DNA of 64,000 bases, taken from assembly GCA_963768055.1 (NCBI GenBank), contig CAVYGN010000002.1, positions 64,001 through 128,000 of the forward strand, read 5' to 3'. The notes below the pieces were generated by a model. It was not told where the DNA came from, did not search any database, and was given only the letters and a program-made list of their open reading frames with translations. Shown here piece after piece: positions 15,019 through 57,123 of the stretch (position 1 is its first letter; every line of letters begins with the position of its first letter). This DNA comes from an uncultured Spirochaetota bacterium. Lineage in GTDB: Bacteria > Spirochaetota > Brevinematia > Brevinematales > JAOACQ01. The translations under genes were made by a program, and so were the position numbers.

Positions 15019-15022
15019 TTAA

Positions 15023-35988: not shown

Positions 35989-36015
35989 ATCCATCCTCCA
36001 AAATTAATCGTTTGT

Positions 36016-36084: not shown

Positions 36085-36682
36085 ACAATTTTGGTTTTAA
36101 ATAATGATCGATCAGGAAATCGATATAGACTTTTTGAATTTCCGGTTTTTTAAGGTCGATTCCGGCGAAATCGTCGAACATGCCCGGGAACATGGCGGGG
36201 AAAAGCATCGCGGAAAGCGTCTGTATGACAATAAGCTTTATATTCATATCGCCGATTTCAGGATGGAACCTTTTTATGTTTATTAACATACTGTCGAGGA
36301 ACTTGTTCTTCCATTCTAAAATATCCCTGTCATAGACCTTCTTTGTAAAAGGGTTATAGAACCTGGCTTTTACTATCTCCGGATAATTAACCATGCCCTC
36401 GAAGTTATGCCTGAAAAAATCCCGGAAAATTTCGAACGGGCTCTTACCTTTTTCCTCGAACATTTCAAAGTTTGCCATAGCGTTTTTCATTGCCAGCTGA
36501 AGAGCCGCTTCGATAAGTTTTTTCTTTGACCCGAAATAATAATTTATCGCCGCGCTGTTCACACCTGCTTCCCTGGCGATGTTCCGGATCGTGACCGAAT
36601 GCAGGCCCTCTTCTTCAATGCAGGCCAGTGCGGAAAGTATTATCCTTTCGCGTGTAGAATGTTCATCCATTAAGAGCCTCAT
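36083..36682 (-). CDS. TetR/AcrR family transcriptional regulator
   Basis: TRERIILSA...TIRNIAREAGVNSAAINYYFGSK HTH. Confidence 0.93.
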   Translation of the reverse strand: MRLLMDEHSTRERIILSALACIEEEGLHSVTIRNIAREAGVNSAAINYYFGSKKKLIEAALQLAMKNAMANFEMFEEKGKSPFEIFRDFFRHNFEGMVNYPEIVKARFYNPFTKKVYDRDILEWKNKFLDSMLINIKRFHPEIGDMNIKLIVIQTLSAMLFPAMFPGMFDDFAGIDLKKPEIQKVYIDFLIDHYLKPKL

Positions 36683-37601: not shown

Positions 37602-37781
37602 GGCCTTAATCAGCCATAAAATCCCGATAAATTAAAATGTTGTATAATAAATAAAAAAGTTTTAGAATAGCAATGCAATTAGTGTCTAATAAAAAAGCGG
37701 GGCTGATAAGTATATGTTTAGGGGGTCGATGTTTTCAACGGGCGGTAGGCCCGGCGATTCATGGAGAGGAATGGGGGTATT

Positions 37782-44600: not shown

Positions 44601-46895
44601 TTTCCATGAATCTTCAGGAAGAAGTGATAATCCGGCATTCAAAAAATTACTTGCCGAATCATATGCTACCGACATTTTTGCCCTTATCCCCGCTTTTAAA
44701 TTAAGTTCTGCAAGATAGATCTTTTCTTCTTGAGTATTTATAATGCCTATAGCGTAATTTAATTGTGAAGCGACCTCAAAAATCCTTTCATCGACCTGCT
44801 CAGGTTTTAAATTATTGATGAGTGTTTTACCAATCACATAATGGTTTTTTTCTCTTTCTTTCTTATCAATTAAATTGTATACCGTTTCTTTTAACCGGTC
44901 ATGCGCGAACCTTATCTTTTGACCCGAGGCGATCAGGAAACCTTCGTTTACAGCCGGTTTTAAAGCCTCGTATGTTTCTTGTTCTGTCCTGCCTAAGACA
45001 AGGGATAATATATTGATATGAAAATCCGGACCTATGCAAGAAGCTGTCCTTATGAATTTCAAAGTATTTTCAGGAAGTTTTAAAATCTGCCCTGAAATAA
45101 ATTCCGCGACATTCCCGGTAATTTCAGCGTTTTTTATTTTATCGATATCCCATTTCCAGCCATTTCTGAATACTATCATCTCCTTGTCATAAAGGGTCTT
45201 GATCAGACCGTTCACAAAAAACGGGTTACCCCTTGTTTTTAGTTCTATTACATCGGCAAGTTCTCCAGTCGTTTTCACATCACAATACAAAGTATCACTC
45301 AAAAGTTTCGATATTTCACTGGAAGTGAGTTTTGTAAGTTTTAATTCTTCCAAATTAACATTATCCTTATTAATATTATCAATAAATTTCGTTAATTTGC
45401 TTTCCTTTCCAACTTCATTGTCCCTGTAAGCGCCCAGAAAAAGGAAGTGACTGAGACTATTATCAGTTAAAACTGCAGAAAGCAGCTTAAGGCTTGCATC
45501 GTCAGCCCACTCCATCCCATCCAGAAAAAATACGAGAGTCTGCTTTTTTCCGGCAAATACTCTTATAAAATTCTGAAAAACATAGTTGAACCTGTTTTCA
45601 GCTTCCGACGGGGCAAGATCTATAACCTTAGGCTGATCGCCTATGATAACTTTAAGCTGCGGCAGTTCATGTACGATAACATCTCCATTTTCCCCGACAC
45701 CTTCCATAATTCTCTTTTTCCATCCTTTAAGCTTTTCTTCACTTTCAGATAACAGGCGCCCTATTAAACCGTTAAAAGCGTCAATAATAGCGGAAAGCGG
45801 CATTGATATTCTGGCCTGGTCGAATTTTCCCTGAATGAAAAAACCATTTTTCTCGGCCACAGCCTTGCTCATTTCATTTACAAGGCTCGATTTTCCAATG
45901 CCGGGCTCTCCAGTTACAATAACTACTTTCTTTTCACCAGCGGCAGCCTCGTTTAATATTCCCTTTAGATAATTTAATTGCTTTTCCCGGCCGTAAAGTT
46001 TTTCCGGTATAGAGAGCTTTTCAGGAAGATCGTTTTCTCCGGGTAAAAAGTCAGAAATTTTTGATTTTTCTAACAACTCTTTTAAGCATCGCTCCAGATC
46101 CGTTTTTAGACCGTAAGAGCTTTGATATCTCTCTTCCGCATTTTTTGAAAGCAGTTTCATCACAATGCCTGATAATGCCCCGGGAATTTCATGGTTTATA
46201 TCGGACGGGTTTGCCGGTGTTCTGGCAATATGCGCATGCACGATTTCCATCGGATCTTCAGCTTCGAATGGGACTTTCCCCGTCAGCATCTGGTAAAATG
46301 TCACTCCGAGCGAATAATAGTCGGTTCTGTAATCGATTGAACGGTTCATCCTTCCGGTTTGTTCCGGTGATATATATAACAGTGTGCCTTCGAGCTGGTC
46401 ACGCGTTATTATTTCCTGAACTTCCCTTGAAAGTTGCGTCGATATACCGAAATCTATGATCTTGACTTCCGAAGTCTTCCTGTTTAAAAGTATATTATGC
46501 GGCTTTATGTCCTTGTGGATGATATTCTTTTTATGTATTTCCCCCAGAGCCTCTATTATCTTCAAACCGACAGGCAGAAATTCTTTTAACGCAAACTTTC
46601 CCTGCTTTAATATTTTATCAATAGATTCACCTCCGAAATCCTCTTCAACTATTATCAGGGCATTTTCAAGCTTCACGAGTTCGTATACTCCCAGAACTCC
46701 TTCCACGCCTCCAAGGCTTTTCATTACATTATATTCATATTCGAAGTTTTTAAGTTCTTCATGATTTGGATATGAGTTCTTCAGCGTCTTCATTACGACC
46801 TGCCTTTTATTTCGCAGGTCTTCGGCCCTGTAGATTATATTTTTTCTGCCTGAATAAATTTCATCCGATATTTTGTAATCTTTGGGATTGATCAT
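41622..46895 (-). CDS. multidomain Ser/Thr kinase + AAA ATPase + TPR-like region + GAF + SpoIIE/PP2C phosphatase
   Basis: HKDIKPHN, DFG and YISPEQTGR; Walker A GEPGIGKS; GAF PKSILC...LYIEN; PP2C GGDLYD, ADVSGHG, FTDG and DD. Confidence 0.92.
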   Translation of the reverse strand: MINPKDYKISDEIYSGRKNIIYRAEDLRNKRQVVMKTLKNSYPNHEELKNFEYEYNVMKSLGGVEGVLGVYELVKLENALIIVEEDFGGESIDKILKQGKFALKEFLPVGLKIIEALGEIHKKNIIHKDIKPHNILLNRKTSEVKIIDFGISTQLSREVQEIITRDQLEGTLLYISPEQTGRMNRSIDYRTDYYSLGVTFYQMLTGKVPFEAEDPMEIVHAHIARTPANPSDINHEIPGALSGIVMKLLSKNAEERYQSSYGLKTDLERCLKELLEKSKISDFLPGENDLPEKLSIPEKLYGREKQLNYLKGILNEAAAGEKKVVIVTGEPGIGKSSLVNEMSKAVAEKNGFFIQGKFDQARISMPLSAIIDAFNGLIGRLLSESEEKLKGWKKRIMEGVGENGDVIVHELPQLKVIIGDQPKVIDLAPSEAENRFNYVFQNFIRVFAGKKQTLVFFLDGMEWADDASLKLLSAVLTDNSLSHFLFLGAYRDNEVGKESKLTKFIDNINKDNVNLEELKLTKLTSSEISKLLSDTLYCDVKTTGELADVIELKTRGNPFFVNGLIKTLYDKEMIVFRNGWKWDIDKIKNAEITGNVAEFISGQILKLPENTLKFIRTASCIGPDFHINILSLVLGRTEQETYEALKPAVNEGFLIASGQKIRFAHDRLKETVYNLIDKKEREKNHYVIGKTLINNLKPEQVDERIFEVASQLNYAIGIINTQEEKIYLAELNLKAGIRAKMSVAYDSASNFLNAGLSLLPEDSWKTYYKLTLDFHTEAGEADYLTGEHEKAEKHFNEVMVNAKDIMDEVKVYSIQIPLNTSYNKMELAIKQGKKALSLLGMKLPGKANPIYIINELLKANSLVKKLTKKKGIEALMNLPILDEPKKIAIAQLFIQILSPVFMFDADYLPIIVLKLLNFSLRNGNSMYSAYAYSAYGYIVSSVLGNYKRGYQLGEIAYMFKNKINTKVVQSKVTFALGFLLYHWVKPLRETIALFEESYKLSMETGDLEYAAYSIDVNLMTSILLSENLESICEKAKLFDIQSTKLKQPRIAEEIKLWQNLALNLTGAKDDKYSFSGPSCDEKAIIDYWKKVKNMNPYAFYLVFKQFIHYLYNDYEGSLNYALEVKKPLKGIMGNSLYRDSYYFYALSLLGNYPDANKNLWKKNLKTIDSILKKMTLWAMLCPENCLHKQLFIEAELIARFGKNEEAMRLYERAAEEAGKNGFAHEKAMILEHTGLFYQSIGLEKISEFYLKEAYLTYQSWGAKGKLQDLRIKNPAIITSIESDYDIVKEAGLDSGTISESTTSKRPGSSSTRGSTLDISTVLKSSNIMAGEMNLEALLSKTIKILMENAGAQKGFLIMPDSGGKLFIQAKAEILTVNEPDILKNIPIEKEDKICVSIVRYVSNSRESVVIDDAASDGRWAGDEYIKAYKPKSILCTAIINQGRLVAILYIENNLITNAFPERRIELLSTLSSQAAISIENAGLYGRLEDYSRNLEVKVAERTKELAAKNQAMLDELKIAQKVQASFLPKEEALRQCADLNISGKYLAMEDLGGDLYDIIKIDDNRYGFLMADVSGHGVSASLMTAMAKASFNTDALTGKTTAEVCYSVNKDICLFVGEMSEHDLTVFFGILDVGTGRFEFTNAAHQPAILYRRKTGKIERLQTGSGYIGLTMNSTYKCGEVFLEKGDRLVMFTDGIVETMNKDGDLYDTKRLLEMTVKCAEKTPAEYIECVLLDVNEFSGGAPLHDDRAILCVDYKS

Positions 46896-47139: not shown

Positions 47140-47826
47140 CTATATATTTTTATTCCATTGATTCCCAGTCGAAGCATCGTAATCAATCCTTTTAATCATA
47201 TTAAGATTTATCTCATTTAGAGAATTTATCAAGTACTTAACTCCAGTCTTAACCATATCTTTTTTCTGATATCCCCATGTATTTGATGAAGGCATTCCAA
47301 TAAAAGGCACATTTAACGACTTTGCAGCCTCGGCTACCATATTGACGTCGTCAATGAACAATGCCTCATTATATTTAAGATTATAAATTTCAGTAGTGAT
47401 TTCTTTTATTCCCGGTCTGAAATCATTTGTACAAACGTACATCGTAAAATATTCGGTATATTGCTTCATTTCTTTACGATAATATGTTTCGGGCAATCCT
47501 CCATAGCAAATTATCAATAAATTAAGCGATTCAATTAATTTTAGCAAATAATCTAAACCTTGATTGAATCCACTTCCATTTCTATTTATAAATTCTTCCC
47601 TTTCTTTAAAATAAATCTTAATTAATTCATCCGTACTAAGATCTAATTTAAATAAATTAATCAGATATTCGGCGGCTTCTTCTCTTTTTTGTGAAAATAT
47701 ATTTCTTTCAATATCCCTGTTATAAGTTCCCCCAAATTTTTCTACCAATAACTTTATTACCGGGCTGAAAGTGTCTTTCAGCAGGACTCCGTCTATATCG
47801 AAAGCAACGAGCTTGAGTGTCTTCAT
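47140..47826 (-). CDS. HAD-superfamily phosphatase
   Basis: Motif I FDIDGVLL followed by DTFSPVI, motif IV LFIDD. The ATG at 47826 follows AAGGA. Confidence 0.85.
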   Translation of the reverse strand: MKTLKLVAFDIDGVLLKDTFSPVIKLLVEKFGGTYNRDIERNIFSQKREEAAEYLINLFKLDLSTDELIKIYFKEREEFINRNGSGFNQGLDYLLKLIESLNLLIICYGGLPETYYRKEMKQYTEYFTMYVCTNDFRPGIKEITTEIYNLKYNEALFIDDVNMVAEAAKSLNVPFIGMPSSNTWGYQKKDMVKTGVKYLINSLNEINLNMIKRIDYDASTGNQWNKNI

Positions 47827-47845
47827 AAATATTTCCTTGTAAAAA

Positions 47846-48613
47846 TCATCTCTGAATACCTGCAAGCGCTCCCCCATCAATAGGGATTATACAGCCTGTA
47901 ATATATGAGGAAGCCTCGGAACACAAAAACATTACAACTTGAGCTACCTCTTCTGTTGAGCCTTCTCTTTGTAAAGGTATCATTTTTTTTATTATTTTTT
48001 CGGAATCCGGACCTGAAAAATACCTTTCTTCGTTGATCGGAGTTTTTATCAAACCCGGACAAATAGCATTAATTCTTATTTTATACTTAGCAAAATCCAG
48101 AGCAAGGGCTTTTGTTAGGCCTATAGCTCCATGTTTCCCTGCACAATAATCCTCGACCAGATTTGTGACTGAAATACCCCAGCCGGAGGATGTATTTATA
48201 ATTGAGCCTCCCCCATTCTTGATCATATATTCAATTTCAAATTTCATACATAACCACAAACCCTTCAAATTAATGTCTATTGAATAATCCCATTCCTTCT
48301 CTGTTCTTTCAAGGATAGTTTTCCGTGATGAAGAAACACCGGCATTATTGAATGCATAGTCAAGCCTTCCGAAATGATCAACCGTTTTCGAAATAAAATT
48401 TGCGACATCGTCAATTTTTGATACATCACATTGAATAAACAGGCAATCACCACCCGCTTTTTTAATATCATTTGAAGTTTCGGCTCCCTTTTTTAAATCA
48501 CGCCCGCAAACCGAAACTTTGGCTCCTTCCTTTGCAAATGAAAAAGCGGCTGCCCTGCCGATGCCGGATGTTCCGCCGGTTATTGCAATAACTCGATCTT
48601 TGAATCTCAACAT
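47846..48613 (-). CDS. classical SDR (FabG/glucose-1-dehydrogenase-like oxidoreductase)
   Basis: TGGTSGIG, NNAG, NTSS, YCAGK, ICPG and DGG motifs. Confidence 0.92.
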   Translation of the reverse strand: MLRFKDRVIAITGGTSGIGRAAAFSFAKEGAKVSVCGRDLKKGAETSNDIKKAGGDCLFIQCDVSKIDDVANFISKTVDHFGRLDYAFNNAGVSSSRKTILERTEKEWDYSIDINLKGLWLCMKFEIEYMIKNGGGSIINTSSGWGISVTNLVEDYCAGKHGAIGLTKALALDFAKYKIRINAICPGLIKTPINEERYFSGPDSEKIIKKMIPLQREGSTEEVAQVVMFLCSEASSYITGCIIPIDGGALAGIQR

Positions 48614-48672
48614 AGCATATCCTTTTTGATTTTAATAAATGTATTATGTGATAATTCCATTTTGAGGGCCGA

Positions 48673-49488
48673 TTATCTTGCGCCGGGGTAGACCCTGTAA
48701 ATCTTTTTTGACCTTTTATCTGTTAAAGCTTTAAATATTATTTTAGCGGCTGCATCCGGAGACATTCTTTTATCTTTAGACTTATTTTGCTCATTTATCA
48801 TTTTATCGAGTTGTTCTGAATAAAACTCCGCTTTATCAGGCTGCAATAGTCCGAAATGCTCTTTTAATTCTTTTACAGCTTTAATTTTTGCACTTGTTTT
48901 AACGCCGCGGCATTTTATTTTGATCACGGGTATTTTCCAGGGAGCCAGTTCATCATTCAAAGTATCAACTAAACAATTCAAAACGGCGTCGCACATATAG
49001 AGGCTTGAAACGAATGGGGAAGTCTTTTTAGAATCTGTTAAAATCCAGACGATTCTTCCATTATTTTCTTTAATCATAGGAAGAAATGTCTGAATCAATC
49101 CGATTGGCCCCAAAACTCTTGTTTCGATCTCTTCCCTTAATCTTTGAAGATTCATCAATTCAACAGGCGATAAGTATGCACCGCCGGCGTTATTAATCAC
49201 TGCGAATAATCCTTCCGGACCGAGTTTATTTAATTTCTCTGAGATAAAATCATGAGCCATAGCAATATGATCCTGATTTCTAAGATCAAACGGAAAAACC
49301 GGTATAAGATTTGGATTATTATAGGATATTAACATATCTGCATCGCTTTTTTTACGGACAGCAGCAAACACGTTAAAACCGTTATCGGCGAATAACAAAG
49401 CACAACTGAGGCCGATTCCCGAAGAAGTTCCTGTTATCAGAATACTTTTTCTTGGAAATGCCGCCTTTAATGAATTATCCCGTTTCAA
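48673..49488 (-). CDS. atypical SDR, paralogue of 35149..35988
   Basis: TGTSSGIG and AVINNAGG...SPVELM; the YxxxK position reads LYMCD. Confidence 0.8.
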   Translation of the reverse strand: MKRDNSLKAAFPRKSILITGTSSGIGLSCALLFADNGFNVFAAVRKKSDADMLISYNNPNLIPVFPFDLRNQDHIAMAHDFISEKLNKLGPEGLFAVINNAGGAYLSPVELMNLQRLREEIETRVLGPIGLIQTFLPMIKENNGRIVWILTDSKKTSPFVSSLYMCDAVLNCLVDTLNDELAPWKIPVIKIKCRGVKTSAKIKAVKELKEHFGLLQPDKAEFYSEQLDKMINEQNKSKDKRMSPDAAAKIIFKALTDKRSKKIYRVYPGAR

Positions 49489-49851
49489 TATTTATTTCCT
49501 TTAATTAATTCGGTAAATAAAATCGACAGAAGATGCAATAATATTTAAATTATGACTTAATAAAATAAATATTACAAAAATCATAGATTTGTGTTTTAAA
49601 ACTTATGCGAGGTGGGAGAAAACAGAGAGGCGATTTTTGATCATGATAATTTCGATAACCTTGACAGGATTATACTCTACTTTATAATAGTATATATTAT
49701 TATTAAACTAATTTAGCTTTTTAAATAGAAAGTAATTGGATTTCAAAAGATCAAGTTTCCGGATATAAAAACAGCTATTATCTACCCTATTTTTATTAGA
49801 GGAATAAATTAAAATCAATCTCCAGCAATATTTTATCAATCGAGGAATATT

Positions 49852-51165
49852 ATGAAAAGGCCTTTGTCTTCTATGGAAAATATACTTTATTTAAGGAATA
49901 AAATAACTCCCTATAATTGTTTTGTAAGCATACATATCAAAGGTACTCTTTCCACTGATGTATTCGAACAAGCTCTTGAAATGACAAAAAAAAGGCACCA
50001 ATATTTATTTTATTACATTCTTGAAAACAATAATGTAGCCGAGTTTTTTTATGATGCCAAAGCAAGCATTCCGGTGAGAGAAGTTTATAATGCTGAAGAA
50101 AATAATTGGGTTGATGAATGCAATGCCGAATTAAATATACCTTTTGATTTGGCTAAGGCTCCATTAGCAAGAGCTGTTATTCTAAGGAAAAAAGATGGAG
50201 CCGATATAATTATTATTTTTTCTCACATAATCTGCGACGCCGTTTCTATGGTCTATTTTGCATATGATCTGCTGAAGGTAATAGATCATTTATATGAAAA
50301 CCAGAGTATTGATTTTCTCGATGAATTACCGGATATTTATCCGGAGGTGAAATATTTACCCGATATATCAAAACAATTACATTCATACGAGAAAATTGAA
50401 AAGACTATAGCATACAATAATATAAGTGATAATAATTACCCCATTGAAAAGCGCTCTACTAATATCATTACCTGCTGGCTGAATGAAACGCAAACCGAAT
50501 ATATTATTAGTCAATGTAAAAAAAGAAATATAACCGAAAATTCTCTAATTGCTGCCGCTTTAATAATAAATATGAAAAATTATATTTTCAATAAATATCA
50601 AATAAATAATAATTTTATGATAAAAACAGGCTCATCATTAAATGTAAGAAAATATTATTTATGTGATATTAATAATTCGCAATTCGGATGCTGGGATAGA
50701 AACGGATTTATTGATTTTAAAGTTGAGGAAATAACAAATCTTTGGGATTGTGCCTTGATATATGATGATCGTTTAAAGGAATTGATTGAAAAAGGCAAGC
50801 CATTTTCAATACAAAAAGAAAGAGTAAATGATTATTCAAATTATTCAATGTCTGATATTATAAAAAAAAATGAAAATTCAACTCCTTTTGTCGGATTAAT
50901 TAATCTTGGAAAATTTGAATTGAATGAATATTTCAATGGAAAGATAAAATTGGAAAAATTAAGTGTCGGAGGGCCGTTACATCTATATTGCAAAAACGAT
51001 TTGGGGTTTGGAATAGTTGATATAACTTATGATAATCGATTAAATTTAATATTTTATTATGTGAAGCCTACACGCACTCAAATTGAAGCGAAAATATTCG
51101 CCATGGATTTTTTAAAATTGATATTCGAAAACAATCAAGATTTACTAAAAGAAATTAATCTTTAA
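49852..51165 (+). CDS. stand-alone condensation-domain/PapA-like CoA-dependent acyltransferase
   Basis: RPLSxxE, PFDLAKAPLAR, HxxxD motif (SHIICDAVS) and NLGK. Confidence 0.8.
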   Translation: MKRPLSSMENILYLRNKITPYNCFVSIHIKGTLSTDVFEQALEMTKKRHQYLFYYILENNNVAEFFYDAKASIPVREVYNAEENNWVDECNAELNIPFDLAKAPLARAVILRKKDGADIIIIFSHIICDAVSMVYFAYDLLKVIDHLYENQSIDFLDELPDIYPEVKYLPDISKQLHSYEKIEKTIAYNNISDNNYPIEKRSTNIITCWLNETQTEYIISQCKKRNITENSLIAAALIINMKNYIFNKYQINNNFMIKTGSSLNVRKYYLCDINNSQFGCWDRNGFIDFKVEEITNLWDCALIYDDRLKELIEKGKPFSIQKERVNDYSNYSMSDIIKKNENSTPFVGLINLGKFELNEYFNGKIKLEKLSVGGPLHLYCKNDLGFGIVDITYDNRLNLIFYYVKPTRTQIEAKIFAMDFLKLIFENNQDLLKEINL

Positions 51166-51197
51166 TAAAAAAATAATTTATATGGAAAATTATCGTT

Positions 51198-51848
51198 ATG
51201 GAAGGATTTTTAATTGATTTTGATGGAGTCATTCTAAAAAATTTCCCTGATCTGGTTTCTAAATTTATTTATAATTATATAAATAAGTTAACACCTATAA
51301 ATTATGAAACAATAATATCGTTTGTACGCCTTTTCATAAGTTTTCCGACTAAGGATTTTTTTACATTTCTTTTTAATTCATTGGGAATAGAAGAACACTT
51401 TGAAGATTTTATAAATAAAGTTTCTAATTTGGAAGATAACGGTGAAATAAAATTCGAAATCGATGATTATTTCAATACTTTCATAGATAAATGTAATAAC
51501 AACCAAATAAATTTTAAAATATTCTCTATGGCTGATACTAGGAGAATTTTAAAAACAATTCATAATATTAAACTGGAAGATATTTATTCTTTATGTGAAA
51601 ATTCCAAATCAAATACAAGGACATTTTCTCATCTACAAAAAGAATTAAAAATTGATTTAAATAAATGGGTTTTAATTGATGACGATCCTTTTTCATTGAG
51701 ATCAGGCAAATTAAATGGAATGTTTACGATTATGATGCAAAATAATGTTTTTGGCGAATCAGAATATTATTTATATAAAGATTATATCGATGTTAAAGTT
51801 AATTCTTTTAAAGAAGTTATTGATTATTATTTTAAAGGCTTTCGATGA
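51198..51848 (+). CDS. HAD-superfamily hydrolase
   Basis: IDFDGVI, FS, K and VLIDD motifs. Confidence 0.75.
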   Translation: MEGFLIDFDGVILKNFPDLVSKFIYNYINKLTPINYETIISFVRLFISFPTKDFFTFLFNSLGIEEHFEDFINKVSNLEDNGEIKFEIDDYFNTFIDKCNNNQINFKIFSMADTRRILKTIHNIKLEDIYSLCENSKSNTRTFSHLQKELKIDLNKWVLIDDDPFSLRSGKLNGMFTIMMQNNVFGESEYYLYKDYIDVKVNSFKEVIDYYFKGFR

Positions 51849-51907
51849 ATATTAATGCCTGTATAATCAAATTAAGGCATGTGGCAAAATAATAATTGGA
51901 GAACAAT

Positions 51908-53203
51908 ATGCCGATTTTAGGCAGGGATTTGAATGAATTGGAAAACGCATGCTATCTGCAAAATAAAAGTGCGCCTTTTAACATTGTTATTTGCTTGCAC
52001 TTCAAAGGCTGTTTGGCGTATGAAACTTTTGCGGAAGCACTGGAAATAAACAGAGCCAGGCATTATTATTTATCCTGCTTTATAGAGGAAAAGGATGGGG
52101 TTCCAAAGTTCGTATATAATAATAATGTCAAAATTCCTATAAAAATTATGAATTCTGATTACGATAACCAATGGGTCAATGAATGTAAGGAACAGATGAA
52201 TTGCCCTTTTGATCTCGGGAAAGCTCCGCCTGCTAAAATAATCTGGATAATAAAAAATAATTCCTCTGATATAATTTTTAATTTTTCACATATAATATCT
52301 GATGGAATTTCCATGATGAATTTTATAATTGATTTATTTAAAACTCTGAATATTTTATTAAAAAAGGAAAAAATAACTATCAAGAAAGAAACCGAAATTT
52401 TTCCAGATATAAGGTATTTTCCTGATAATTTTGATAATTTGAATAAAAAAAAAGATGAATCCCTTATTATGGATTGGCTTGAAAAGGTAAAATCTTATAA
52501 GATTGAAAACAGGTCTTCCAATATAATAGTCTGCCAATTAAGTAAAGAAGAAACAAGGGAAATTATCAATAGATGCAAAAAAGAAGATACTACCATAAAT
52601 TCGATGCTTGCTGCCGCATTAATCTTAAGTATGAAAAATTATATCCTGCAAAAGTATGGTGTAACGGAGGATTTCCTGATTAATACCAGCTCGGGATTGA
52701 ATTTGAGGAAGTTTTATAAATGCGCCGTATCGGATCGTCAATTGGGGTGCTGGGCAGGAAAGGGTTATATTTTATACAATTCAAGAAATGTCGGGTCTTT
52801 ATGGGATTGCTCAAGGGACTATGAACAAAGATTATATCAAAATATCAATTCGGGCGCACCTTTCTTATATCTGAAAAAGAGTTTTGAAATTTTAAAGCGG
52901 TATCAAGCCGGTGAAAAAGCATTAAAAAAAGAAAATAATTTACCAAGTGTAATGCTTACAAATCTTGGTAAAGTAGATTATATCGATCTGTATAGTAACG
53001 AAACAAAATTAGAGAAAATCAGTTTTACTTCGCCGATGTACCGGAATTGGCCCAGTGATTTAGGTTTTGGAATTTGTGCTTTGACATACGATAATCAATT
53101 ATCGATGGTATTTCAATATATGAGTCCGGCATGGATCGATAGCGAAGCTAAAAAATATGTCAATAGCCTATTGAAGCTGATGGATATTAAGGCTAAAAAT
53201 TAG
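51908..53203 (+). CDS. stand-alone condensation-domain/PapA-like acyltransferase (paralogue 2)
   Basis: RDLNELE, PFDLGKAPPA, SHIISDGIS and TNLGK. The ATG at 51908 follows GGAG (the ORF track starts at TTG 51896). Confidence 0.8.
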   Translation: MPILGRDLNELENACYLQNKSAPFNIVICLHFKGCLAYETFAEALEINRARHYYLSCFIEEKDGVPKFVYNNNVKIPIKIMNSDYDNQWVNECKEQMNCPFDLGKAPPAKIIWIIKNNSSDIIFNFSHIISDGISMMNFIIDLFKTLNILLKKEKITIKKETEIFPDIRYFPDNFDNLNKKKDESLIMDWLEKVKSYKIENRSSNIIVCQLSKEETREIINRCKKEDTTINSMLAAALILSMKNYILQKYGVTEDFLINTSSGLNLRKFYKCAVSDRQLGCWAGKGYILYNSRNVGSLWDCSRDYEQRLYQNINSGAPFLYLKKSFEILKRYQAGEKALKKENNLPSVMLTNLGKVDYIDLYSNETKLEKISFTSPMYRNWPSDLGFGICALTYDNQLSMVFQYMSPAWIDSEAKKYVNSLLKLMDIKAKN

Positions 53204-53241
53204 GGGACAGACTGAGAATTTAAAATAAATCTCTAAAATTA

Positions 53242-54516
53242 TCAACCCTTCTTCCTGTCAGTCCTGAGATGGCAGAAACGCTTGACCGCTTGTTTCAGGT
53301 TGTCTTTATCCGCTTTCACAATCCTGTTTATATGAAAACCTCCGAAAAAACTCTCGTTTTCATTCCGGCTCCATCTCTGGTGACATCCTCCCCTGACAAA
53401 ACCGATCACCGGGAAATACATGATGAAGTCGTAATCTTTTTGAGACGCTTCCTCGCCCACGAATTCGCCTATTTCTATGCAGAAACCATTTAATGAAATA
53501 TCTATCAATTTCCCGACATAGTAATCTTCCTTATCGGAACTCCATAGGGAAGTGGGACAAAGTTCGGGATCGACGGGGTAAAACCTGTGAGCGGGGTTTG
53601 TCATGTTCCTTCCCTCGCGGAACCTTGAAAAGAGCTTTTTACTCATAATACGGCCGTCTATATCGAATTCAGTGCAGACCACGCCTTTTTGAAAAATTGA
53701 AACGAGGGCTTTAGCCCATGTCCATTCGCCGTTCTTATCGTCAATTCTTAAAAAATCGGCTTTCATCCCGATGGGATAATGGAGGTCGATGTAATCGATA
53801 AACTTGGCATTGAAAGTATTTAAAGCGATCTGGGAACCCTTTAACGGTATGTTGCCGAAAACATGGCAGCAGGCTATGGTCATCTGCCTCGCCGCTTCCA
53901 TGACCATCATGCCGGGGACATGCTCCTGGTGATGCTCGAAAAAAAAGCTGTGCCGCATATCTACAAGCATTTCGGCGTAAAAAACATTTTCCTTTTTAAA
54001 AGCTTCAATGGATTCGAAAATTTCATAAAGGATCATTTTTTCATGATTGGTGAGGCTGATATCCTTTTTGCTCAGGATATCCTGGATGGCCCTGTCCTCG
54101 AACTCTGAAAGGCTTTTCTTTAACAGGTAGCAATTGTACTTCTCGTTTTTCCTGTAATAGTTCATTAGAAAATCATGGTCTTTTTTAGAAAGCTTCAGAT
54201 CATTTTCAAGAAAATCTGCCTCGATCGTATGCGGTATATTAAAGAGAATATAACATTCCCTGTTATGAATTATCGGATCGGAGGTATCCTGTGATTCTTC
54301 ATTAACGGGCAGCGGAGCGCCCGGTTTATGGAAAATATAGTATTCCAGGAATATCGCTAAGTCCGGGAGCGTTAAAGAGGGTATGATGATGTTTTCAACA
54401 GTTTCCTTTTCGATGCAGTATGGAATGCTCCTTCGGAGACCCCTTAAAAAGACATTCTCCGGGTATTTCTTATGGACATATTTTCTATCGACAGCCTTGT
54501 CCGCGCCATTACGCAT
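53242..54516 (-). CDS. AfsA/ScbA-related hotdog-domain protein with C-terminal PilZ-like domain
   Basis: VDRKYVHK...ENVFL and HSFFFEH-x3-HVPGMMVMEAARQ are AfsA-family motifs. The C-terminal LIDISLNGF...VRG...RW...GFH reads as a PilZ-type barrel. Confidence 0.82.
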   Translation of the reverse strand: MRNGADKAVDRKYVHKKYPENVFLRGLRRSIPYCIEKETVENIIIPSLTLPDLAIFLEYYIFHKPGAPLPVNEESQDTSDPIIHNRECYILFNIPHTIEADFLENDLKLSKKDHDFLMNYYRKNEKYNCYLLKKSLSEFEDRAIQDILSKKDISLTNHEKMILYEIFESIEAFKKENVFYAEMLVDMRHSFFFEHHQEHVPGMMVMEAARQMTIACCHVFGNIPLKGSQIALNTFNAKFIDYIDLHYPIGMKADFLRIDDKNGEWTWAKALVSIFQKGVVCTEFDIDGRIMSKKLFSRFREGRNMTNPAHRFYPVDPELCPTSLWSSDKEDYYVGKLIDISLNGFCIEIGEFVGEEASQKDYDFIMYFPVIGFVRGGCHQRWSRNENESFFGGFHINRIVKADKDNLKQAVKRFCHLRTDRKKG

Positions 54517-54741
54517 AAAAAAGGTCTCCGTGGGTCGCAGTTAAATCCCCCGTACAAAAGACCCATGTTTTATTATAAAAACAAATAAATAAAAATATCA
54601 AGAATTGAAATATAACTGAATTGAAAAATAACATTTTTTCACTGAAAAAAGCAATAGAAAAAGGTTATAAAATTTATTTGACATAACGATATTGATTTAT
54701 TAAATTAAAAACAATATTTTACACTCTTAAAGGAGGGATGT

Positions 54742-55152
54742 ATGAAAAAAATCGTGATTTTAAGCTTTCTGCCCATAGTTTTGATCGCGGCGATGGCACT
54801 GGCGGCATCTAAAACTGCTGTTTACAACGGTTATTTATCCGACACTCTGTGCTATACTAACAAGGACAGCATAGCGTTCGACGGGGCGAACATGAAGACG
54901 AACCCTGAAAAACACACTGTAGTCTGCCTGAAAAACAAGTCTTGCGCGGCTTCGGGATACGGACTTTTAATCAAGAACGACAGCGGCACTTACGATTTTA
55001 CAAAATTCGACAATAACGGCAACAAGCAGATAAAAGCCTTGCTGAAATCGACAAAGAGAACAGACAACTATTATATTCAGGTTAAGGGCGTTATGGCTAA
55101 AAATATTATCAGAGTAGTGAAGATCAGCGAAGCCCAACCGGCCGGCAATTAA
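54742..55152 (+). CDS. small exported hypothetical protein with conserved Cys/His motif
   Basis: Signal peptide AMALAA; GYLSDTLC...HTVVC...CAASGYG; AGGAGG RBS. Confidence 0.7.
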   Translation: MKKIVILSFLPIVLIAAMALAASKTAVYNGYLSDTLCYTNKDSIAFDGANMKTNPEKHTVVCLKNKSCAASGYGLLIKNDSGTYDFTKFDNNGNKQIKALLKSTKRTDNYYIQVKGVMAKNIIRVVKISEAQPAGN

Positions 55153-55257: not shown

Positions 55258-57123
55258 ATTAAATTCAATTCCATCCAGACAAAAATACTTTCGTCTCTTT
55301 CAGCCCTTTTGGTTGCGGCAGTAGTATTGATAATCGTCTTTATAGTATATAATCAGCGTGCGAACCTCCTCGATGAAAATCATAAAAACGTTAAGGTAAA
55401 CCTGGAATCCCTCATCGTGTCGCTTAAAAACATGATGCTCACAGGAAACGCCCCCGTCCTGGTCAATACCATGAGAGACCTTTCAGGGGAAAAGCTTTAC
55501 AAAAAAATTAACATATTGAGAATGGACGGGACCATCGCCTTCAGCGACGATCAAACTATCAAGGCCGTTAACGCAAAATCGGGCCAGTCGTTTGAAATTT
55601 CCGAAAGGCTTGCCGACGACAGGAGCGATTCTGAAAAAGCAAAGGATTCTCAAAATATTATTTTCGTTTCAAACACACAGGGTTTCGTTACAAAATCAAA
55701 TCCAGGGCAGGGTGAAAACGATTATTACCTACCGATAAAATTCGAAAATTCCTGCGCCCTCTGCCATGAAAGCGGCCGGATTTTCCGCGGCGTGGCCCAT
55801 ATTACCCTTTCGACTATGGAAATTAACGATAAAATCACGGGGATGCGTAATATTCTTTCTTTGTTTTTTATCGGTGCCGGTGCGATACTGCTCATGTTTA
55901 TTTTCCTTCTTGTTAAAAGGCAGATAATTACACCGATCCTGAAAATCAGCGAAACGGCTGAAGAAGTCAGCAGGGGCGATTTCACCAGGCGGTTCGACCT
56001 TAAAAACAGGGACGAAATCGGCGACTTCGCGGCTAACCTGAACGATTTCGTGGGCAATCTGAACGGCGATATCCGGCAGGTTAAAAGCGCGTCCGAAAAA
56101 ATCAACAGCCTTTCAAACAATTCGATCCGGCTCATGGAGGGCAAGGTTAAAAACAATATAATGGAGATTGAATCCAGTATCAACCATATTGACGGACAGA
56201 CTGAAAGAACCACTACAGGCGTCAACGAACTTACCACCACAGTCGAGGAAATCGTACGCAACCTTCAAAGCATTATGGGCAGTATAAAGAACCAGGCCGT
56301 TGCCGTCGAGGAATCTTCAAGCTCTATCGAAGAAATAGTCAGGACTATCGAAAGGACAACCGATATGTCCACCCAAACCCGGAGCATAGCGGACGAACTC
56401 AATAAGGTCGCTAAGGATGGAGGCGAAGCTGTCAAAAATTCCGTATCGGCGATCAGGGAAGTATCCGAGTATTCGCAGCAGATCATCAAGATCCTGTCCC
56501 TCATCACAAACGTATCGAAGAATACTAACCTGCTGGCCATGAACGCTGCTATAGAGGCCGCGCATGCCGGAGACGCCGGAAAAGGTTTCGCCATTGTAGC
56601 TGAAGAGATACGTCATCTTTCAGAGGAAACCGGCAAAAATGCCCGCGAAATCGGCGAAGTGGTCAGTACAATTGTCTCCCGGATCGATGTTTCAGTGAAC
56701 CTGGCGGAGAAAGCCGGGATAGGACTCGAAACTATAATGGCTTATTCAAGCCAGAGTGCAAAAATCATAGAACAATTGAATGTAAGCATGGAAGAGCAGA
56801 ACCATGGGGCAAAGGAGATCCTGAAAGCGATCCAGTACCTCGTTCAAATCTCGGAGGAGGTTAAATTCTCTATCCAGGAACAAAACAAGGCGACGGACGA
56901 ATTCGCGGCGGCATTAAAAGAGATCTGCGACCTGACTTTTAAAAATAAAGACGATGTGAAAATGCATATAAATAACCTTGAGAGCCTCATAAAGGCGGTT
57001 GAAGAGATCAAAAACAATATAAGCGTAAATCAGGAGCTTGCAAAAAACCTCAAATCCCTGATGGACAAGTTCAATACCGGAGAAACAGAAAGTGAAAGAT
57101 CGGAAATGAGGCTTGTCGAGTAA
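55258..57123 (+). CDS. methyl-accepting chemotaxis protein with periplasmic c-type heme motif
   Basis: Two TMs, periplasmic CALCH, HAMP (RDEIG) and signalling TNLLAMNAAIEAAHAGDAGKGFAIVAEEIR. Start probably ATT at 55258. Confidence 0.92.
   Translation: MKFNSIQTKILSSLSALLVAAVVLIIVFIVYNQRANLLDENHKNVKVNLESLIVSLKNMMLTGNAPVLVNTMRDLSGEKLYKKINILRMDGTIAFSDDQTIKAVNAKSGQSFEISERLADDRSDSEKAKDSQNIIFVSNTQGFVTKSNPGQGENDYYLPIKFENSCALCHESGRIFRGVAHITLSTMEINDKITGMRNILSLFFIGAGAILLMFIFLLVKRQIITPILKISETAEEVSRGDFTRRFDLKNRDEIGDFAANLNDFVGNLNGDIRQVKSASEKINSLSNNSIRLMEGKVKNNIMEIESSINHIDGQTERTTTGVNELTTTVEEIVRNLQSIMGSIKNQAVAVEESSSSIEEIVRTIERTTDMSTQTRSIADELNKVAKDGGEAVKNSVSAIREVSEYSQQIIKILSLITNVSKNTNLLAMNAAIEAAHAGDAGKGFAIVAEEIRHLSEETGKNAREIGEVVSTIVSRIDVSVNLAEKAGIGLETIMAYSSQSAKIIEQLNVSMEEQNHGAKEILKAIQYLVQISEEVKFSIQEQNKATDEFAAALKEICDLTFKNKDDVKMHINNLESLIKAVEEIKNNISVNQELAKNLKSLMDKFNTGETESERSEMRLVE

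Follow-up and report, generated by a model that had tools for sequence, protein, structure and literature searches.

The locus at positions 47140 to 54516 of the window, the 64,000-nucleotide stretch of spirochaete DNA that was analysed, can be read as the spirochaete form of an AfsA-type ('phosphorylated butenolide synthase') pathway that is wired into signal transduction. We regard this reading as probable, if only just. At its centre stands a non-canonical AfsA protein that carries a PilZ-fold domain.

Gene content of the locus

An earlier note on this DNA had described seven adjacent genes and named their families. The seven open reading frames were recovered with the same coordinates and strands, their Pfam matches agreed and the gene cluster is confirmed. 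The features are as follows.

41622 to 46895, minus strand: giant signalling protein of 1757 aa, with Pfam domains given below
47140 to 47880, minus strand: HAD1, 246 aa from a TTG start, Pfam HAD_2
47846 to 48613, minus strand: SDR1, Pfam adh_short_C2
48673 to 49488, minus strand: SDR2, an atypical SDR, Pfam adh_short
49661 to 49688, plus strand: promoter-like site, 12/12 sigma-70 consensus, upstream of AT1-HAD2-AT2
49852 to 51165, plus strand: AT1, Pfam Condensation, HIICDA motif
51198 to 51848, plus strand: HAD2, Pfam HAD_2, four phosphatase motifs
51896 to 53203, plus strand: AT2, Pfam Condensation, AATase and PapA_C, HIISDG motif
53242 to 54516, minus strand: AfsA-PilZ protein, 424 aa, Pfam AfsA and a PilZ-fold domain
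54572 to 54601, minus strand: promoter-like site, 11/12 consensus, upstream of the AfsA-PilZ gene

Both promoter-like sites are consensus matches alone, and the total of such sites in the region was not above that of shuffled sequences. A domain search of the window found no ACP or acyl-CoA ligase, as had been cautioned, and no KSIII either. When the locus was checked for a ScbR-type receptor, none adjoined the AfsA-PilZ gene.

The AfsA-PilZ protein

The protein was recognised by the Pfam AfsA model (3.3e-19, 69.7 bits; cut-off, 24). It had been taken for an enzyme of the AfsA/ScbA/MmfL type, but it is not a canonical one: it has a single repeat, and the NCBIfam ScbA/BarX equivalog gave 55.6 bits, far below the cut-off of 200. 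We conclude that it is a non-canonical AfsA. Alignment by hhalign with the second repeat of eight Streptomyces AfsA proteins gave a probability of 98.7 and 40% identity over 85 columns, which include HVPGMM-EAARQ. The catalytic-type motif HVPGxxxxEAxRQ is retained, with E207 and R210 present in all 88 long-form relatives and Q211 and H199 in 87 of the 88. A quick tree placed the protein in a clade apart from the Streptomyces repeat 2 (SH-aLRT 99). Its sequence assigns it to AfsA and not to the thioesterase or FapR families. No single-repeat AfsA form is known to have been assayed.

The chain begins with beta1 of the hotdog (residues ~12-30), followed by a helical insertion of ~145 residues, the rest of the hotdog (~176-292) and, after an Arg-rich linker, a PilZ-fold barrel (~307-418). 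The single AfsA-type hotdog is complete, being formed from residues 8-30 and 175-292, and it matched FabZ (1u1z_A) with a Z of 12.8 and an rmsd of 2.9 over 129 aligned residues. A 175-aa relative with a single hotdog matches in two parts: residues 177-303, and residues 3-69 (E 5e-7), where the close match covers ~3-30. At similar Z values of 10.7-13.7, the hotdog fold matches FabZ, thioesterases and FapR, a regulator that senses acyl-CoA. The AF2 model of the protein was moderately confident, with a mean pLDDT of 74.8.

The C-terminal PilZ-fold domain had been overlooked in the earlier note. The top Foldseek hits of the protein are PilZ effectors, and the barrel matched PP4397 (3kyf_A; Z 13.2, rmsd 2.6, 109 residues aligned) and BcsA (4p00_A; Z 12.0, rmsd 2.3). 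The PilZ Pfam score of the window's protein is below the cut-off (12.3 against 22.5 bits). Motif inspection of the domain found (D/N)xSxxG and no canonically spaced RxxxR. The domain looks like a c-di-GMP sensor and may bind c-di-GMP. No published description of a fusion between an AfsA-type hotdog and PilZ was found in the searchable literature.

Gene neighbourhoods in related genomes

The neighbourhood of the AfsA-PilZ gene was surveyed at 24 loci of 21 genomes, in Brevinematales-, Spirochaetales- and Leptospiraceae-titled records. HAD1 and/or HAD2 adjoin the AfsA-PilZ homologue at 11 of the 24 loci. HAD2 is the commonest enzymatic partner (10/24), HAD1 was found at 7, SDR1 at 5 and acyltransferase homologues at 3, so that SDR1 and the acyltransferase genes are missing from most loci. 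In the Leptospiraceae locus L028, the AfsA-PilZ, HAD2, SDR1, acyltransferase and giant kinase genes are all present again, and in L009, a congener, the AfsA-PilZ homologue is flanked by the same gene families. The linkage of the AfsA-like gene to HAD, SDR and acyltransferase genes, for which a neighbourhood check had been proposed, was thus seen in relatives.

Seven of 41 related genomes carry the AfsA-PilZ gene. HAD1 occurs in 4, HAD2 in 5 and the acyltransferase in 3 of the 41, always together with it, and no homologue of the three was found in the 34 related genomes that lack it; since the related genomes are not independent samples, these linkage counts overstate the support. The grouping of the genes exceeds chance. 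The earlier note had named three outcomes that would speak against its interpretation. Two were looked for, a missing AfsA match and a missing gene linkage, and in both cases the opposite was found.

The AfsA-like gene has a GC content of 42.8% (window, 42.0%) and is, as had been remarked, richer than its neighbours AT1 (28.4%), HAD2 (23.3%) and AT2 (32.3%). The same contrast appears in L009 and L028, two other genomes with this gene set, and the GC difference is therefore no argument against linkage.

The accompanying enzymes

HAD1, like HAD2 a HAD-fold hydrolase, passed the Pfam HAD_2 cut-off narrowly (24.3 against 23.8 bits) and has the motif DIDGV, of the subtype DxDGV...DTFSP. Its homologues all begin at Met19, so the true start is likely at 47826. 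When 72,556 plasmid records were searched with HAD1, 21 matched, every one from Streptomyces and with 35-43% identity. On each of the six Streptomyces plasmids inspected, ScbA/BarX and ScbR genes lie no more than 3 kb from the HAD1-like gene. One of these loci, of the SRB type, has the order hydrolase, ScbA/BarX, P450, HAD1-like, ScbR, SDR. This is the order srrH-srrX-srrO-srrP-srrA-srrG, described in PMC7564063, with the HAD1-like gene in the srrP position; HAD1 is 38.9% identical to it over 91% of its length. The statement of the earlier note that a DTFSP-type HAD occurs beside AfsA-like genes proved right, and it holds for the srrP position and for canonical ScbA/BarX-ScbR loci of Streptomyces. 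We conclude that HAD1 corresponds to the 'HAD family phosphatase' found in Streptomyces ScbA/BarX loci, the srrP position included. Of the 9 family members aligned, 3 have Asn at the nucleophile position, as do 4 of the 5 Streptomyces plasmid homologues that could be read, the srrP-position gene among them; the 'phosphatase' label is therefore uncertain for this subtype.

HAD2 (Pfam HAD_2, 26.1 bits against 23.8; motif DFDGV) carries all four phosphatase motifs, and DFDG, S, K and DDxP are unvarying in the 9 aligned members of its family. Examination of 25 loci and 6 plasmid loci gave no Streptomyces counterpart of HAD2.

SDR1 (adh_short_C2, 2.5e-62) passed NCBIfam NF005559 with 223.1 against 215 bits and is a classical FabG-like short-chain dehydrogenase and probably the ketoreductase. 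In three Streptomyces ScbA/BarX loci the HAD is followed by an SDR to which SDR1 is 35-39% identical, and the HAD1/SDR partnership is shared across phyla. With the SDR in the SrrG position SDR1 shares only 26-27% identity. SDR2 (adh_short, 2e-22) has the cofactor motif and had rightly been called atypical, as its YxxxK lacks the catalytic Lys (YMCDA). The SDR at 35149-35994 is its paralogue. A search of six relative loci, L009-L014, gave no match to SDR2.

AT1 (Condensation 3.7e-12, AATase) and AT2 (Condensation 2.1e-15, PapA_C 1.9e-9, AATase) are 39-40% identical to each other and, judged by their sequences, are predicted O-acyltransferases of the condensation/PapA5/alcohol-acyltransferase superfamily. 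The families that had been assigned to them stand, and acyltransferases occur at only three loci. Together with the lack of SDR2 matches in L009-L014, this marks the acyltransferase and SDR2 genes as accessory. AT1 and AT2 are best read as lineage-specific tailoring genes.

Signalling genes beside the synthase

The giant kinase, a commoner neighbour than the SDRs or acyltransferases, lay outside the coordinates of the earlier note. Its Pfam domains are a Ser/Thr kinase, an AAA_16 (STAND) ATPase, a TPR-like region, GAF and a SpoIIE-type PP2C phosphatase. Full-length homologues with 29-58% identity adjoin the AfsA-PilZ gene at 11 of the 24 loci, and its own genome of 3.69 Mb has just 3 giant paralogues. 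A hybrid histidine kinase was found at 5 loci, and one or the other kinase at 15. Apart from the HADs, signalling proteins are the commonest neighbours of the AfsA-PilZ gene. At L034, the giant protein ends in GGDEF-EAL and adjoins the PilZ-bearing synthase, and at L022, L023 and L025 STAS/HATPase_c_2 partner-switching genes are nearby.

At L011, L014, L020 and L022, the synthase gene has as neighbours a lipoprotein, weakly matched as PDC/Cache-like, and a hybrid histidine kinase that has two TM segments and a receiver domain. With the queries used, no such module was found in the window's genome, where the giant cytoplasmic kinase occupies its place. Nine loci have no kinase partner, six of them on pieces of at most 10.4 kb, and seven of the nine also lack HAD1, HAD2, SDR1 and the acyltransferase; L036 and L037 retain SDR1.

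Comparison with known systems

The locus resembles the SRB/SAB-type butenolide (AHMB) systems of Streptomyces, SrrX/SrrP/SrrG(/SrrO) on pSLA2-L and SabA/SabP/SabD, in combining an AfsA-family enzyme with a HAD-type 'phosphatase' and an NAD(P)-dependent dehydrogenase. The Streptomyces synthases have two fused repeats, whereas the spirochaete one has one repeat, an insertion and a PilZ-fold domain. The spirochaete locus has no adjacent ScbR/TetR receptor or P450, adds HAD2, the atypical SDR and two acyltransferases, and belongs to an anaerobic spirochaete. With AfsA/ScbA/BarX (gamma-butyrolactone) and MmfL (furan; with MmfP and MmfH) it shares the AfsA hotdog, the HVPG...E..RQ motif and nearby phosphatase and reductase genes, but it differs from AfsA/ScbA/BarX by its single repeat and by failing the ScbA/BarX model.

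The same long-form architecture, in the same clade, is found in proteobacterial 'AfsA-related hotdog domain-containing proteins' (~360-400 aa) of Photobacterium, Pseudoalteromonas, Rhizobium, Brenneria and others, which antiSMASH flags as 'butyrolactone' clusters and which make up the closest Atlas clusters (0.97 and 0.96). Residues 189-413 align with them, and the aligned part takes in the C-terminal domain, which has a DIGLSG motif. Proteobacterial single-repeat long forms sit with KSIII, an OYE ene-reductase, an asparagine synthase-like gene and SDRs, in contrast to HAD1/HAD2 and giant kinases in spirochaetes. Functionally, these proteins are uncharacterised (PMC13433383).

Like the PilZ c-di-GMP receptors that are fused to or control enzymes (BcsA, Alg44, YcgR, MapZ, PlzA), the protein has a PilZ barrel with (D/N)xSxxG; here c-di-GMP binding is putative, the RxxxR is non-canonically spaced and the partner is an AfsA-type hotdog. 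LuxS/LuxPQ and CqsA/CqsS are pairs of an autoinducer synthase and a membrane sensor. The synthase genes beside a lipoprotein and a hybrid kinase in L011, L014, L020 and L022 may be likened to them by arrangement, with no sequence relationship.

Alternative explanations

The genes might instead serve a lipid pathway. An AfsA-like hotdog would acylate DHAP, or some other polyol phosphate, with no cyclisation step; the acyl-DHAP would be reduced by an SDR and dephosphorylated by the HADs, and PapA5/WS-DGAT-like acyltransferases would add more acyl chains. Such a pathway would yield a neutral or envelope lipid, its synthesis tuned by c-di-GMP. The acyl-DHAP route runs from acyl transfer to DHAP through reduction to dephosphorylation, an order that is resembled here. 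The superfamily of AT1 and AT2 includes PapA5 and wax-ester and alcohol acyltransferases, two HADs and two SDRs exceed the needs of a minimal butenolide route, and a ScbR-type receptor is not adjacent. We nevertheless find this explanation unlikely, since acyltransferases occur at 3 of the 24 loci as against 15 for signalling proteins, the specific homologues of HAD1 and the SDR lie within Streptomyces autoregulator loci and not lipid loci, and the E/R/Q motif that marks AfsA repeats does not vary.

Equally doubtful is a regulator in place of a synthase. The AfsA-PilZ protein would then be an effector of c-di-GMP or another ligand whose hotdog binds or hydrolyses an acyl thioester, like FapR or a thioesterase, within a kinase/PP2C partner-switching pathway; the association of the metabolic HAD, SDR and acyltransferase genes would be a loose one. 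The fold matches to thioesterases, FabZ and FapR, the PilZ effectors leading the Foldseek hits and the prevalence of signalling neighbours, STAS/HATPase_c_2 genes included, are consistent with this. The sequence, however, points to AfsA and not to those hotdog families, HAD1 and HAD2 strictly co-occur with AfsA-PilZ, and the plasmid homologues of HAD1 that were inspected lie in autoregulator biosynthesis loci. That a resident AfsA-like gene merely came to lie beside an unrelated, horizontally acquired low-GC AT1-HAD2-AT2 island, to which it is convergent and from which it differs by 10-20 points in GC, is very improbable. This idea is disfavoured: L009 and L028 show the same flanking families and GC contrast, HAD2 adjoins at 10 loci, and HAD1, HAD2 and the acyltransferase follow the AfsA-PilZ gene across genomes.

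Proposed pathway

According to PMC7756379, PMC6930871 and PMC12301235, AfsA-like enzymes condense DHAP with 3-ketothioesters, SAB butenolides require SabA, the phosphatase SabP and the ketoreductase SabD, and expression of sabAPD in E. coli yields SAB butenolides. In the butenolide pathway that we favour, the AfsA-PilZ protein, probably a homodimer in place of the two fused repeats of canonical AfsA, would draw a 3-oxoacyl group from a fatty-acid-synthase thioester and pass it on to dihydroxyacetone phosphate or a keto-sugar phosphate similar to it. The resulting ester would cyclise to a phosphorylated butenolide, whose phosphate would be removed or processed by HAD2, whose phosphatase motifs are intact, by the SrrP-like partner HAD1, or by both. 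SDR1 would reduce the side-chain ketone, and in this lineage AT1 and AT2 may O-acylate a hydroxyl of the lactone or butenolide product; SDR2 may be non-catalytic or have another role. The PilZ-fold domain could couple synthesis to c-di-GMP or a partner protein, and the pathway is possibly c-di-GMP-regulated. The giant kinase-STAND-GAF-PP2C protein may control the synthase or sense its product.

The interpretation of the earlier note is partly supported by these results. Taken together, the unusual AfsA relative, the helper enzymes known also from Streptomyces hormone clusters and the giant signalling kinase point to an undescribed small-molecule signalling system.

Genes of the locus

An ORF check together with Pfam and NCBIfam searches confirmed the positions and families of the seven open reading frames that the earlier note had described at 47140..54516.

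Genes and promoter-like sites of the locus
41622-46895, minus strand: giant kinase, 1757-aa Ser/Thr-kinase-STAND-GAF-PP2C protein
47017-46989, minus strand: promoter-like site before the giant kinase gene, 10/12 consensus match
47140-47880, minus strand: HAD1, HAD_2 match, weak yet over the threshold
47846-48613, minus strand: SDR1, classical, FabG-like SDR
48673-49488, minus strand: SDR2, atypical SDR, catalytic Lys missing
49661-49688, plus strand: promoter-like site before AT1, 12/12 consensus match
49852-51165, plus strand: AT1, acyltransferase of the condensation/PapA5/alcohol-acyltransferase type, HxxxD
51198-51848, plus strand: HAD2, HAD_2 match, weak yet over the threshold
51896-53203, plus strand: AT2, same acyltransferase type as AT1, HxxxD
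53242-54516, minus strand: AfsA-PilZ, 424 aa, Pfam AfsA hotdog, 69.7 bits against a cut-off of 24
54601-54572, minus strand: promoter-like site before the AfsA-PilZ gene, 11/12 consensus match

SDR1 exceeded the cut-off of the NCBIfam 'glucose 1-dehydrogenase' subfamily (223.1 vs 215 bits) and has the classical SDR motifs TGxxxGxG and YxxxK as TGGTSGIG and YCAGK. SDR2 reads YMCDA, without the Lys, and is not a classical SDR by these motifs. Both acyltransferases scored above the Pfam Condensation cut-off of 30.6 bits (46.1 and 56.8), and HxxxD[GA] was kept in all four AT homologues. The phosphatase motifs of HAD2 (DFDG, S, K and DDxP) were invariant in nine of nine aligned members. HAD1 of the window carries DIDGV and FIDDV; its true start is probably at 47826, because every homologue begins at the Met19 of HAD1.

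The AfsA-like gene had been described as more GC-rich than its neighbours, which was correct: its GC content is 42.8% (window, 42.0%), and AT1, HAD2 and AT2 have 28.4, 23.3 and 32.3%. An equal contrast was found for these families in two further genomes (L009 and L028), indicating that the low GC content belongs to these genes and is no sign of an unrelated insertion. Judging by the well-placed promoter-like sites, which are consensus matches only, the locus may have three or more transcription units. An Rfam scan of the whole window gave no RNA family, riboswitches included, at or above its gathering score. As the earlier note had cautioned, the window encodes no ACP and no ligase; it also has no KSIII. 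An anaerobic spirochaete fits with the pyruvate:ferredoxin oxidoreductase, rubrerythrin and acetate kinase encoded in the window and with the Spirochaetota or Brevinematales titles of the relatives' records.

Several other genes of the window were recorded. At 37761-40532(+) lies a 923-aa ankyrin-repeat protein, unusual for a bacterium, with a weak C-terminal peptidase S9 match. Divergent from the AfsA-PilZ gene, 54742-55152(+) encodes a 136-aa protein of no family with a signal-peptide-like N-terminus; the next gene (55309-57123(+)) codes for a HAMP-type methyl-accepting chemotaxis protein. An MCP gene likewise lies directly upstream of the AfsA-PilZ gene in the homologous locus L037.

One AfsA-type hotdog and a PilZ-fold domain

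The description of the 53242-54516 product as AfsA-like stood for its domain membership. Residues 174-287 matched the Pfam AfsA HMM PF03756 with 69.7 bits against a gathering score of 24, and this single copy is the only PF03756 match of its genome. A canonical AfsA/ScbA identity did not stand, since the protein has one Pfam AfsA stretch, where the Streptomyces proteins of about 300 aa have two in tandem, and since it missed the NCBIfam ScbA/BarX equivalog NF041195 (55.6 vs 200 bits). When an 11-member family profile was compared with eight Streptomyces AfsA proteins by hhalign, the second repeat alone matched (probability 98.7), with 40% identity over 85 columns that include HVPGMM-EAARQ.

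Conservation was analysed in 88 long-form relatives, which are the members of P0001-P0121 with 380-480 residues. E207 and R210 were present in 88/88, and Q211 and H199 in 87/88. E207, R210 and Q211 align with E256, R259 and Q260 of the Streptomyces alignment. The Glu and Arg of the repeat motif reportedly have a catalytic role, from mutagenesis of ScbA. With E207 and R210 invariant and Q211 and H199 nearly so, the hotdog looks like a selected enzyme. By analogy, we infer that AfsA-PilZ would condense DHAP with a 3-ketoacyl thioester.

The AlphaFold model (mean pLDDT 74.8) starts with a short strand followed by helices and short strands to about residue 170. It continues with a single hotdog at 178-292, from which an Arg-rich, disordered linker leads to a beta-barrel at 312-399 and a C-terminal helix. 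In VIA-align, whole single hotdogs matched the model range 8-292 with only about 128 residues aligned (FabZ 1u1z_A, Z 12.8, rmsd 2.9; YhdA 3gek_A, Z 13.7). Similarly, a 175-aa single-hotdog AfsA-like protein aligned in two pieces, to residues 3-69 (E 5e-7; close match at about 3-30) and 177-303 (E 4e-16). Together, the model and both alignments indicate one AfsA-type hotdog with an insertion of about 145 residues after beta1, followed by a PilZ-fold domain. We also considered whether the first 170 residues hold another AfsA repeat in degenerate form. This was rejected, since they form helices and short strands in the model and the N-terminal strand is part of the single hotdog; the absence of a second match by hhalign further excluded it.

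A profile search of solved structures found no AfsA-family structure and gave weak matches only, to the Brr2 helicase (in the insertion, E 0.012) and to PP4397 (E 0.23). The Brr2/U5-200K match covers insertion residues 103-177 (DNA about 53986-54210; E 0.012-0.025) and lies in a helical region of the helicase; it probably reflects a helical motif present in both proteins.

The PilZ beta-barrel fold was recognised by VIA-align at model residues of about 306-420, with Z scores of 10.3-13.2 to nine PilZ structures. These included PP4397 (3kyf_A, Z 13.2, rmsd 2.6, 109 residues aligned), BcsA (Z 12.0, rmsd 2.3), YcgR, MotI, MrkH and Alg44, and the best Foldseek matches were PilZ proteins as well. 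In the window protein, Pfam PF07238 stayed below its gathering score (12.3 vs 22.5 bits, E 0.22); nine of the 11 family members matched it at E<=1, the best with 2.4e-5, and one relative has a precomputed PF07238 annotation. PilZ domains bind c-di-GMP by the motifs (D/N)xSxxG and RxxxR. The window protein has DISLNG, and in the 88 long forms D/N339 was found in 61, S341 in 72 and G344 in 74. A canonically spaced RxxxR is missing; conserved instead are R298 (67/88), R300 (83/88) and R311 (66/88). Binding of c-di-GMP by the PilZ-fold domain is plausible. The window also encodes a 1223-aa protein at 1897-5568(-) in which a periplasmic-binding-protein-like domain is joined to histidine kinase, receiver and GGDEF domains, so that the genome has a capacity for c-di-GMP synthesis near the locus.

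Distribution of the AfsA-PilZ family

The family profile was searched against 1.84 billion representatives and gave 1296 matches at E<=0.001 and 110 at E<=1e-30, the best of them mostly 400-430 aa long. Among species-representative genomes, 59 loci were confirmed. In twenty of these, all from records with Spirochaetota-type titles, the match extends over 72% of the protein or more. Another 14, in Proteobacteria, Nitrospirae and other groups, match in part, and the other 25 are Streptomyces AfsA genes in which the motif region alone matches.

Proteobacterial proteins of 360-386 aa have the long-form architecture in common with the window protein, aligning over residues 189-413 with the C-terminal DIGLSG included. 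A quick tree was built from 69 domain rows, with only every fourth long representative used and domain matches under about 60 model positions left out. In it, the proteobacterial and spirochaete long forms were one clade (SH-aLRT 99), apart from the Streptomyces repeat 2 and the short single-hotdog forms. The nearest ESM Atlas clusters were the same proteobacterial ones (0.97 and 0.96), with the AvrD-family clusters farther off (0.77).

Short single-hotdog AfsA-like genes with histidine-kinase-like matches close by were seen in two loci titled Nitrospirae and Thermodesulfovibrio (L045, L047); in L047, the AfsA-like gene at 2300-2700(+) is directly followed by a receiver-domain gene. In Photobacterium (L039:4669-11324(+)), an apparent operon holds KSIII, an asparagine-synthase-like gene, a long-form AfsA, an OYE and two SDRs.

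Gene neighbourhoods in relatives

We compared 24 loci of 21 genomes (the window, L009, L011, L014 and L019-L038), where L019-L021 are duplicates of L010, L012 and L013 and were counted once. Neighbours were counted by tblastn with fixed coverage thresholds.

Neighbours of AfsA-PilZ among the 24 loci
HAD1: 7
HAD2: 10
HAD1 or HAD2: 11
SDR1-like: 5
AT: 3
Giant kinase: 11
Orthologous hybrid histidine kinase-receiver: 5
U334 (334-aa lipoprotein): 4
Giant kinase or hybrid histidine kinase: 15

The relatives thus tie AfsA-PilZ to the HAD genes and, in fewer loci, to SDR1-like and AT genes, in line with the clustering proposed in the earlier note. These counts overstate the support, because the related genomes are not independent. 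A kinase partner was missing in nine of the 24 loci. Seven of the nine were also without HAD1, HAD2, SDR1 and AT, the other two (L036 and L037) kept SDR1, and six of the nine are pieces of at most 10.4 kb. Among 41 related genomes, seven have the AfsA-PilZ gene; HAD1 occurred in four, HAD2 in five and AT in three, all within these seven, and no homologue of the three was found in the 34 AfsA-PilZ-negative genomes.

The congener locus L009 has the order kinase(-), AT(+), HAD2(+), SDR1(+), HAD1(+), AfsA-PilZ(-). The Leptospiraceae-titled L028 has about the gene set of the window at 30-47% identity (AfsA-PilZ, HAD2, SDR1, an NmrA-like gene, AT(-) and the giant kinase). SDR2 homologues were not found in the relative loci searched, L009-L014. 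Other genes beside or near AfsA-PilZ were fragments of a group II intron reverse transcriptase/maturase just upstream in L028:6573-7520(+), a LytB/IspH-like protein in L011:8180-9220(-) (E 4.7e-6) and L036:1771-2691(+) (E 8e-13), and two OYE-type ene-reductase genes downstream in L038:10028-12357(+).

No TetR receptor of the ScbR/ArpA type was found within the cluster. The nearest TetR-family gene (36083-36682(-)) is about 17 kb off, beside another SDR. Among the Pfam-annotated loci (L009-L014 and L022-L038, except L032 and L033), only L037 has an adjacent TetR gene. The SDR beside the TetR-family gene of the window, at 35149-35994(-), is a second atypical one, a paralogue of SDR2 with His for the catalytic Tyr, no Lys and a DUF1776 match.

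Putative signalling partners

The giant kinase has Pkinase, AAA_16, GAF and SpoIIE domains in Pfam. The genome of 3.69 Mb has only three paralogues of it, so that the repeated adjacency to AfsA-PilZ is unexpected by chance. In L034:10167-16463(+), a 2098-aa variant with a PAS-GGDEF-EAL output replacing PP2C directly follows AfsA-PilZ and HAD1. Genes for STAS/HATPase_c_2 partner switching were also present in L022, L023 and L025.

In the relatives, the hybrid histidine kinase contains a HAMP domain along with two TM segments. U334 carries a signal of the lipoprotein type, and its match to a PDC/Cache sensor is weak and below threshold (E 5e-4 and 3e-3). In genome G006 (L085, contig C13, about 8900-18900), AT, a 51%-identical SDR1, another SDR, U334 and a hybrid kinase are clustered with a sensor-HAMP-PP2C protein whose N-terminus is that of the relatives' hybrid kinase, on a contig other than that of the AfsA-PilZ gene of G006. 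We searched the window's genome for an orthologue of the relatives' hybrid histidine kinase and rejected the best match, which had 34% identity in the kinase core alone; U334 was not found there with the query used. For these queries, the lipoprotein/kinase sensor module is absent from the window's genome.

HAD1 and SDR1 homologues in Streptomyces autoregulator loci

HAD1 matched 21 of 72,556 plasmid records, all of them Streptomyces, with 35-43% identity and at least 89% coverage. Full-length homologues (38% identity) also lie beside two-repeat AfsA genes in two of the 25 Streptomyces loci. Six plasmid loci were inspected (H1, H2, H3, H8, H11 and H20), and in all six ScbA/BarX and ScbR-family genes were within 3 kb of the HAD1 homologue. 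In H1, H2 and H8, a 'glucose 1-dehydrogenase' SDR directly follows the HAD gene. An SDR is nearby in H11 and H20, and none is listed for H3, the PLSDB gene table being incomplete.

The gene order in H11 is alpha/beta hydrolase, ScbA/BarX, P450, HAD1-like, ScbR and SDR. This is identical to the order srrH(orf86)-srrX(85)-srrO(84)-srrP(83)-srrA(82)-srrG(81) given for pSLA2-L (PMC7564063). The gene in the srrP position of an SRB-type plasmid locus, flanked by those for the P450 and ScbR, was 38.9% identical to HAD1 (E 3e-45), SRB being a Streptomyces butenolide autoregulator. SDR1 was 35-39% identical to the post-HAD SDRs of H1, H2 and H8 and just 26-27% identical to SDRs in the SrrG-like position.

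The DTFSP signature, which the earlier note had given for this HAD subtype, was borne out in nine of nine aligned HAD1 members and six of six plasmid homologues. The motif I nucleophile is Asp in six of seven spirochaete members. Asn occupies this position in three of the nine aligned members (L014 and both chromosomal Streptomyces members) and in four of the five readable plasmid members, the one in the srrP position included. Members of the HAD1 subtype may thus be something other than conventional phosphatases. By its motifs, HAD2 is better placed as a candidate for a dephosphorylation step, and no counterpart of HAD2 was found in the Streptomyces loci examined.

Discussion

In actinomycetes, autoregulators of the AfsA type are the classic 'bacterial hormones'. 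The reaction of AfsA-like 'phosphorylated butenolide synthases' is a condensation of DHAP with 3-ketothioesters, an activity assayed for the PBS domain of GdsF, and in the available text the only AfsA-like domain assayed outside actinomycetes is a PKS-embedded one (PMC7756379). The SAB butenolides are described as needing SabA, the phosphatase SabP and the ketoreductase SabD, and sabAPD in E. coli suffices (PMC7756379, PMC6930871); SrrP, SrrG and SrrO are proposed to act in the SRB route (PMC12301235). PF03756 has been reported from 12 phyla as uncharacterised, in a main text that does not contain 'spirochaet' (Creamer et al., PMC8209734). Many AfsA matches in other phyla are described as uncharacterised (PMC8209734, PMC13433383), and the proteobacterial long forms appear solely as antiSMASH 'butyrolactone' predictions in the part of PMC13433383 that we could consult. 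Our literature search found nothing on AfsA together with PilZ and nothing that joins AfsA, butyrolactones and spirochaetes. The one paper found to combine AfsA, hotdog and c-di-GMP deals, by its title and the opening of its abstract, with Chromobacterium quorum sensing.

Compared with the Streptomyces SRB/SAB and gamma-butyrolactone systems, the locus has a like logic and two helper families in common. Its synthase lies outside ScbA/BarX as defined by two repeats and by the score for the equivalog, and a TetR receptor is missing from the locus. We propose that the single-repeat hotdog, inferred to be a homodimer, would perform the AfsA-type acyl transfer and cyclisation. HAD2 and/or HAD1 would process the phosphorylated butenolide together with SDR1 in the fashion of the SRB/SAB triad, and AT1, AT2 (AT being present in three of the 24 loci) and SDR2 would be lineage-specific tailoring genes. 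Through the PilZ-fold domain and the neighbouring kinases, signal transduction would control the pathway or lie downstream of it. We regard this four-part mechanism as the likeliest reading and hold it with slightly more confidence than doubt. DHAP is assumed to be the acceptor by analogy, and the AvrD relationship hints at other keto-sugars.

Other readings of the same genes were weighed. Acyltransferases and SDRs could serve a lipid pathway; set beside the HAD1 and SDR1 homologues of the Streptomyces autoregulator loci, we think this unlikely. To the same degree we doubt that AfsA-PilZ is a non-catalytic effector. A mere chance juxtaposition of the genes we consider most improbable.

Beyond the four-part mechanism, the locus could belong to an undescribed cell-signalling system of Spirochaetota. 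Here, a c-di-GMP-gated, single-repeat AfsA-PilZ and its dedicated HADs would make a butenolide-type signal, O-acylated in this case, which would be sensed without a TetR-family repressor. In some lineages, the lipoprotein paired with the hybrid histidine kinase would be the sensor; in others, this genome included, the giant kinase would sense the signal by its GAF domain. We put this forward tentatively, as a possibility that is rather doubtful at present; if true, partner-switching control would be linked both to the second-messenger state and to a signal that is extracellular or a lipid.

Taken together, the sequence comparisons give good evidence for a probable AfsA-type pathway, and neither the PilZ fusion nor the kinase coupling had been expected. 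The locus is a directly testable Spirochaetota case, with a minimal set of the synthase, two HADs and one ketoreductase, and its helper genes are demonstrably common to this locus and the Streptomyces autoregulator loci. In the searchable literature, a single-repeat synthase and a PilZ-fold domain on the synthase are undescribed for such systems, as is the replacement of TetR receptors by a conserved coupling to kinases of the giant STAND or the hybrid histidine type. If the chemistry holds, butenolide-type signalling would be older than, or would cross, the actinomycete boundary and would be tied to c-di-GMP, and the locus would offer a first way into the function of the giant spirochaete proteins of the kinase-GAF-PP2C type.
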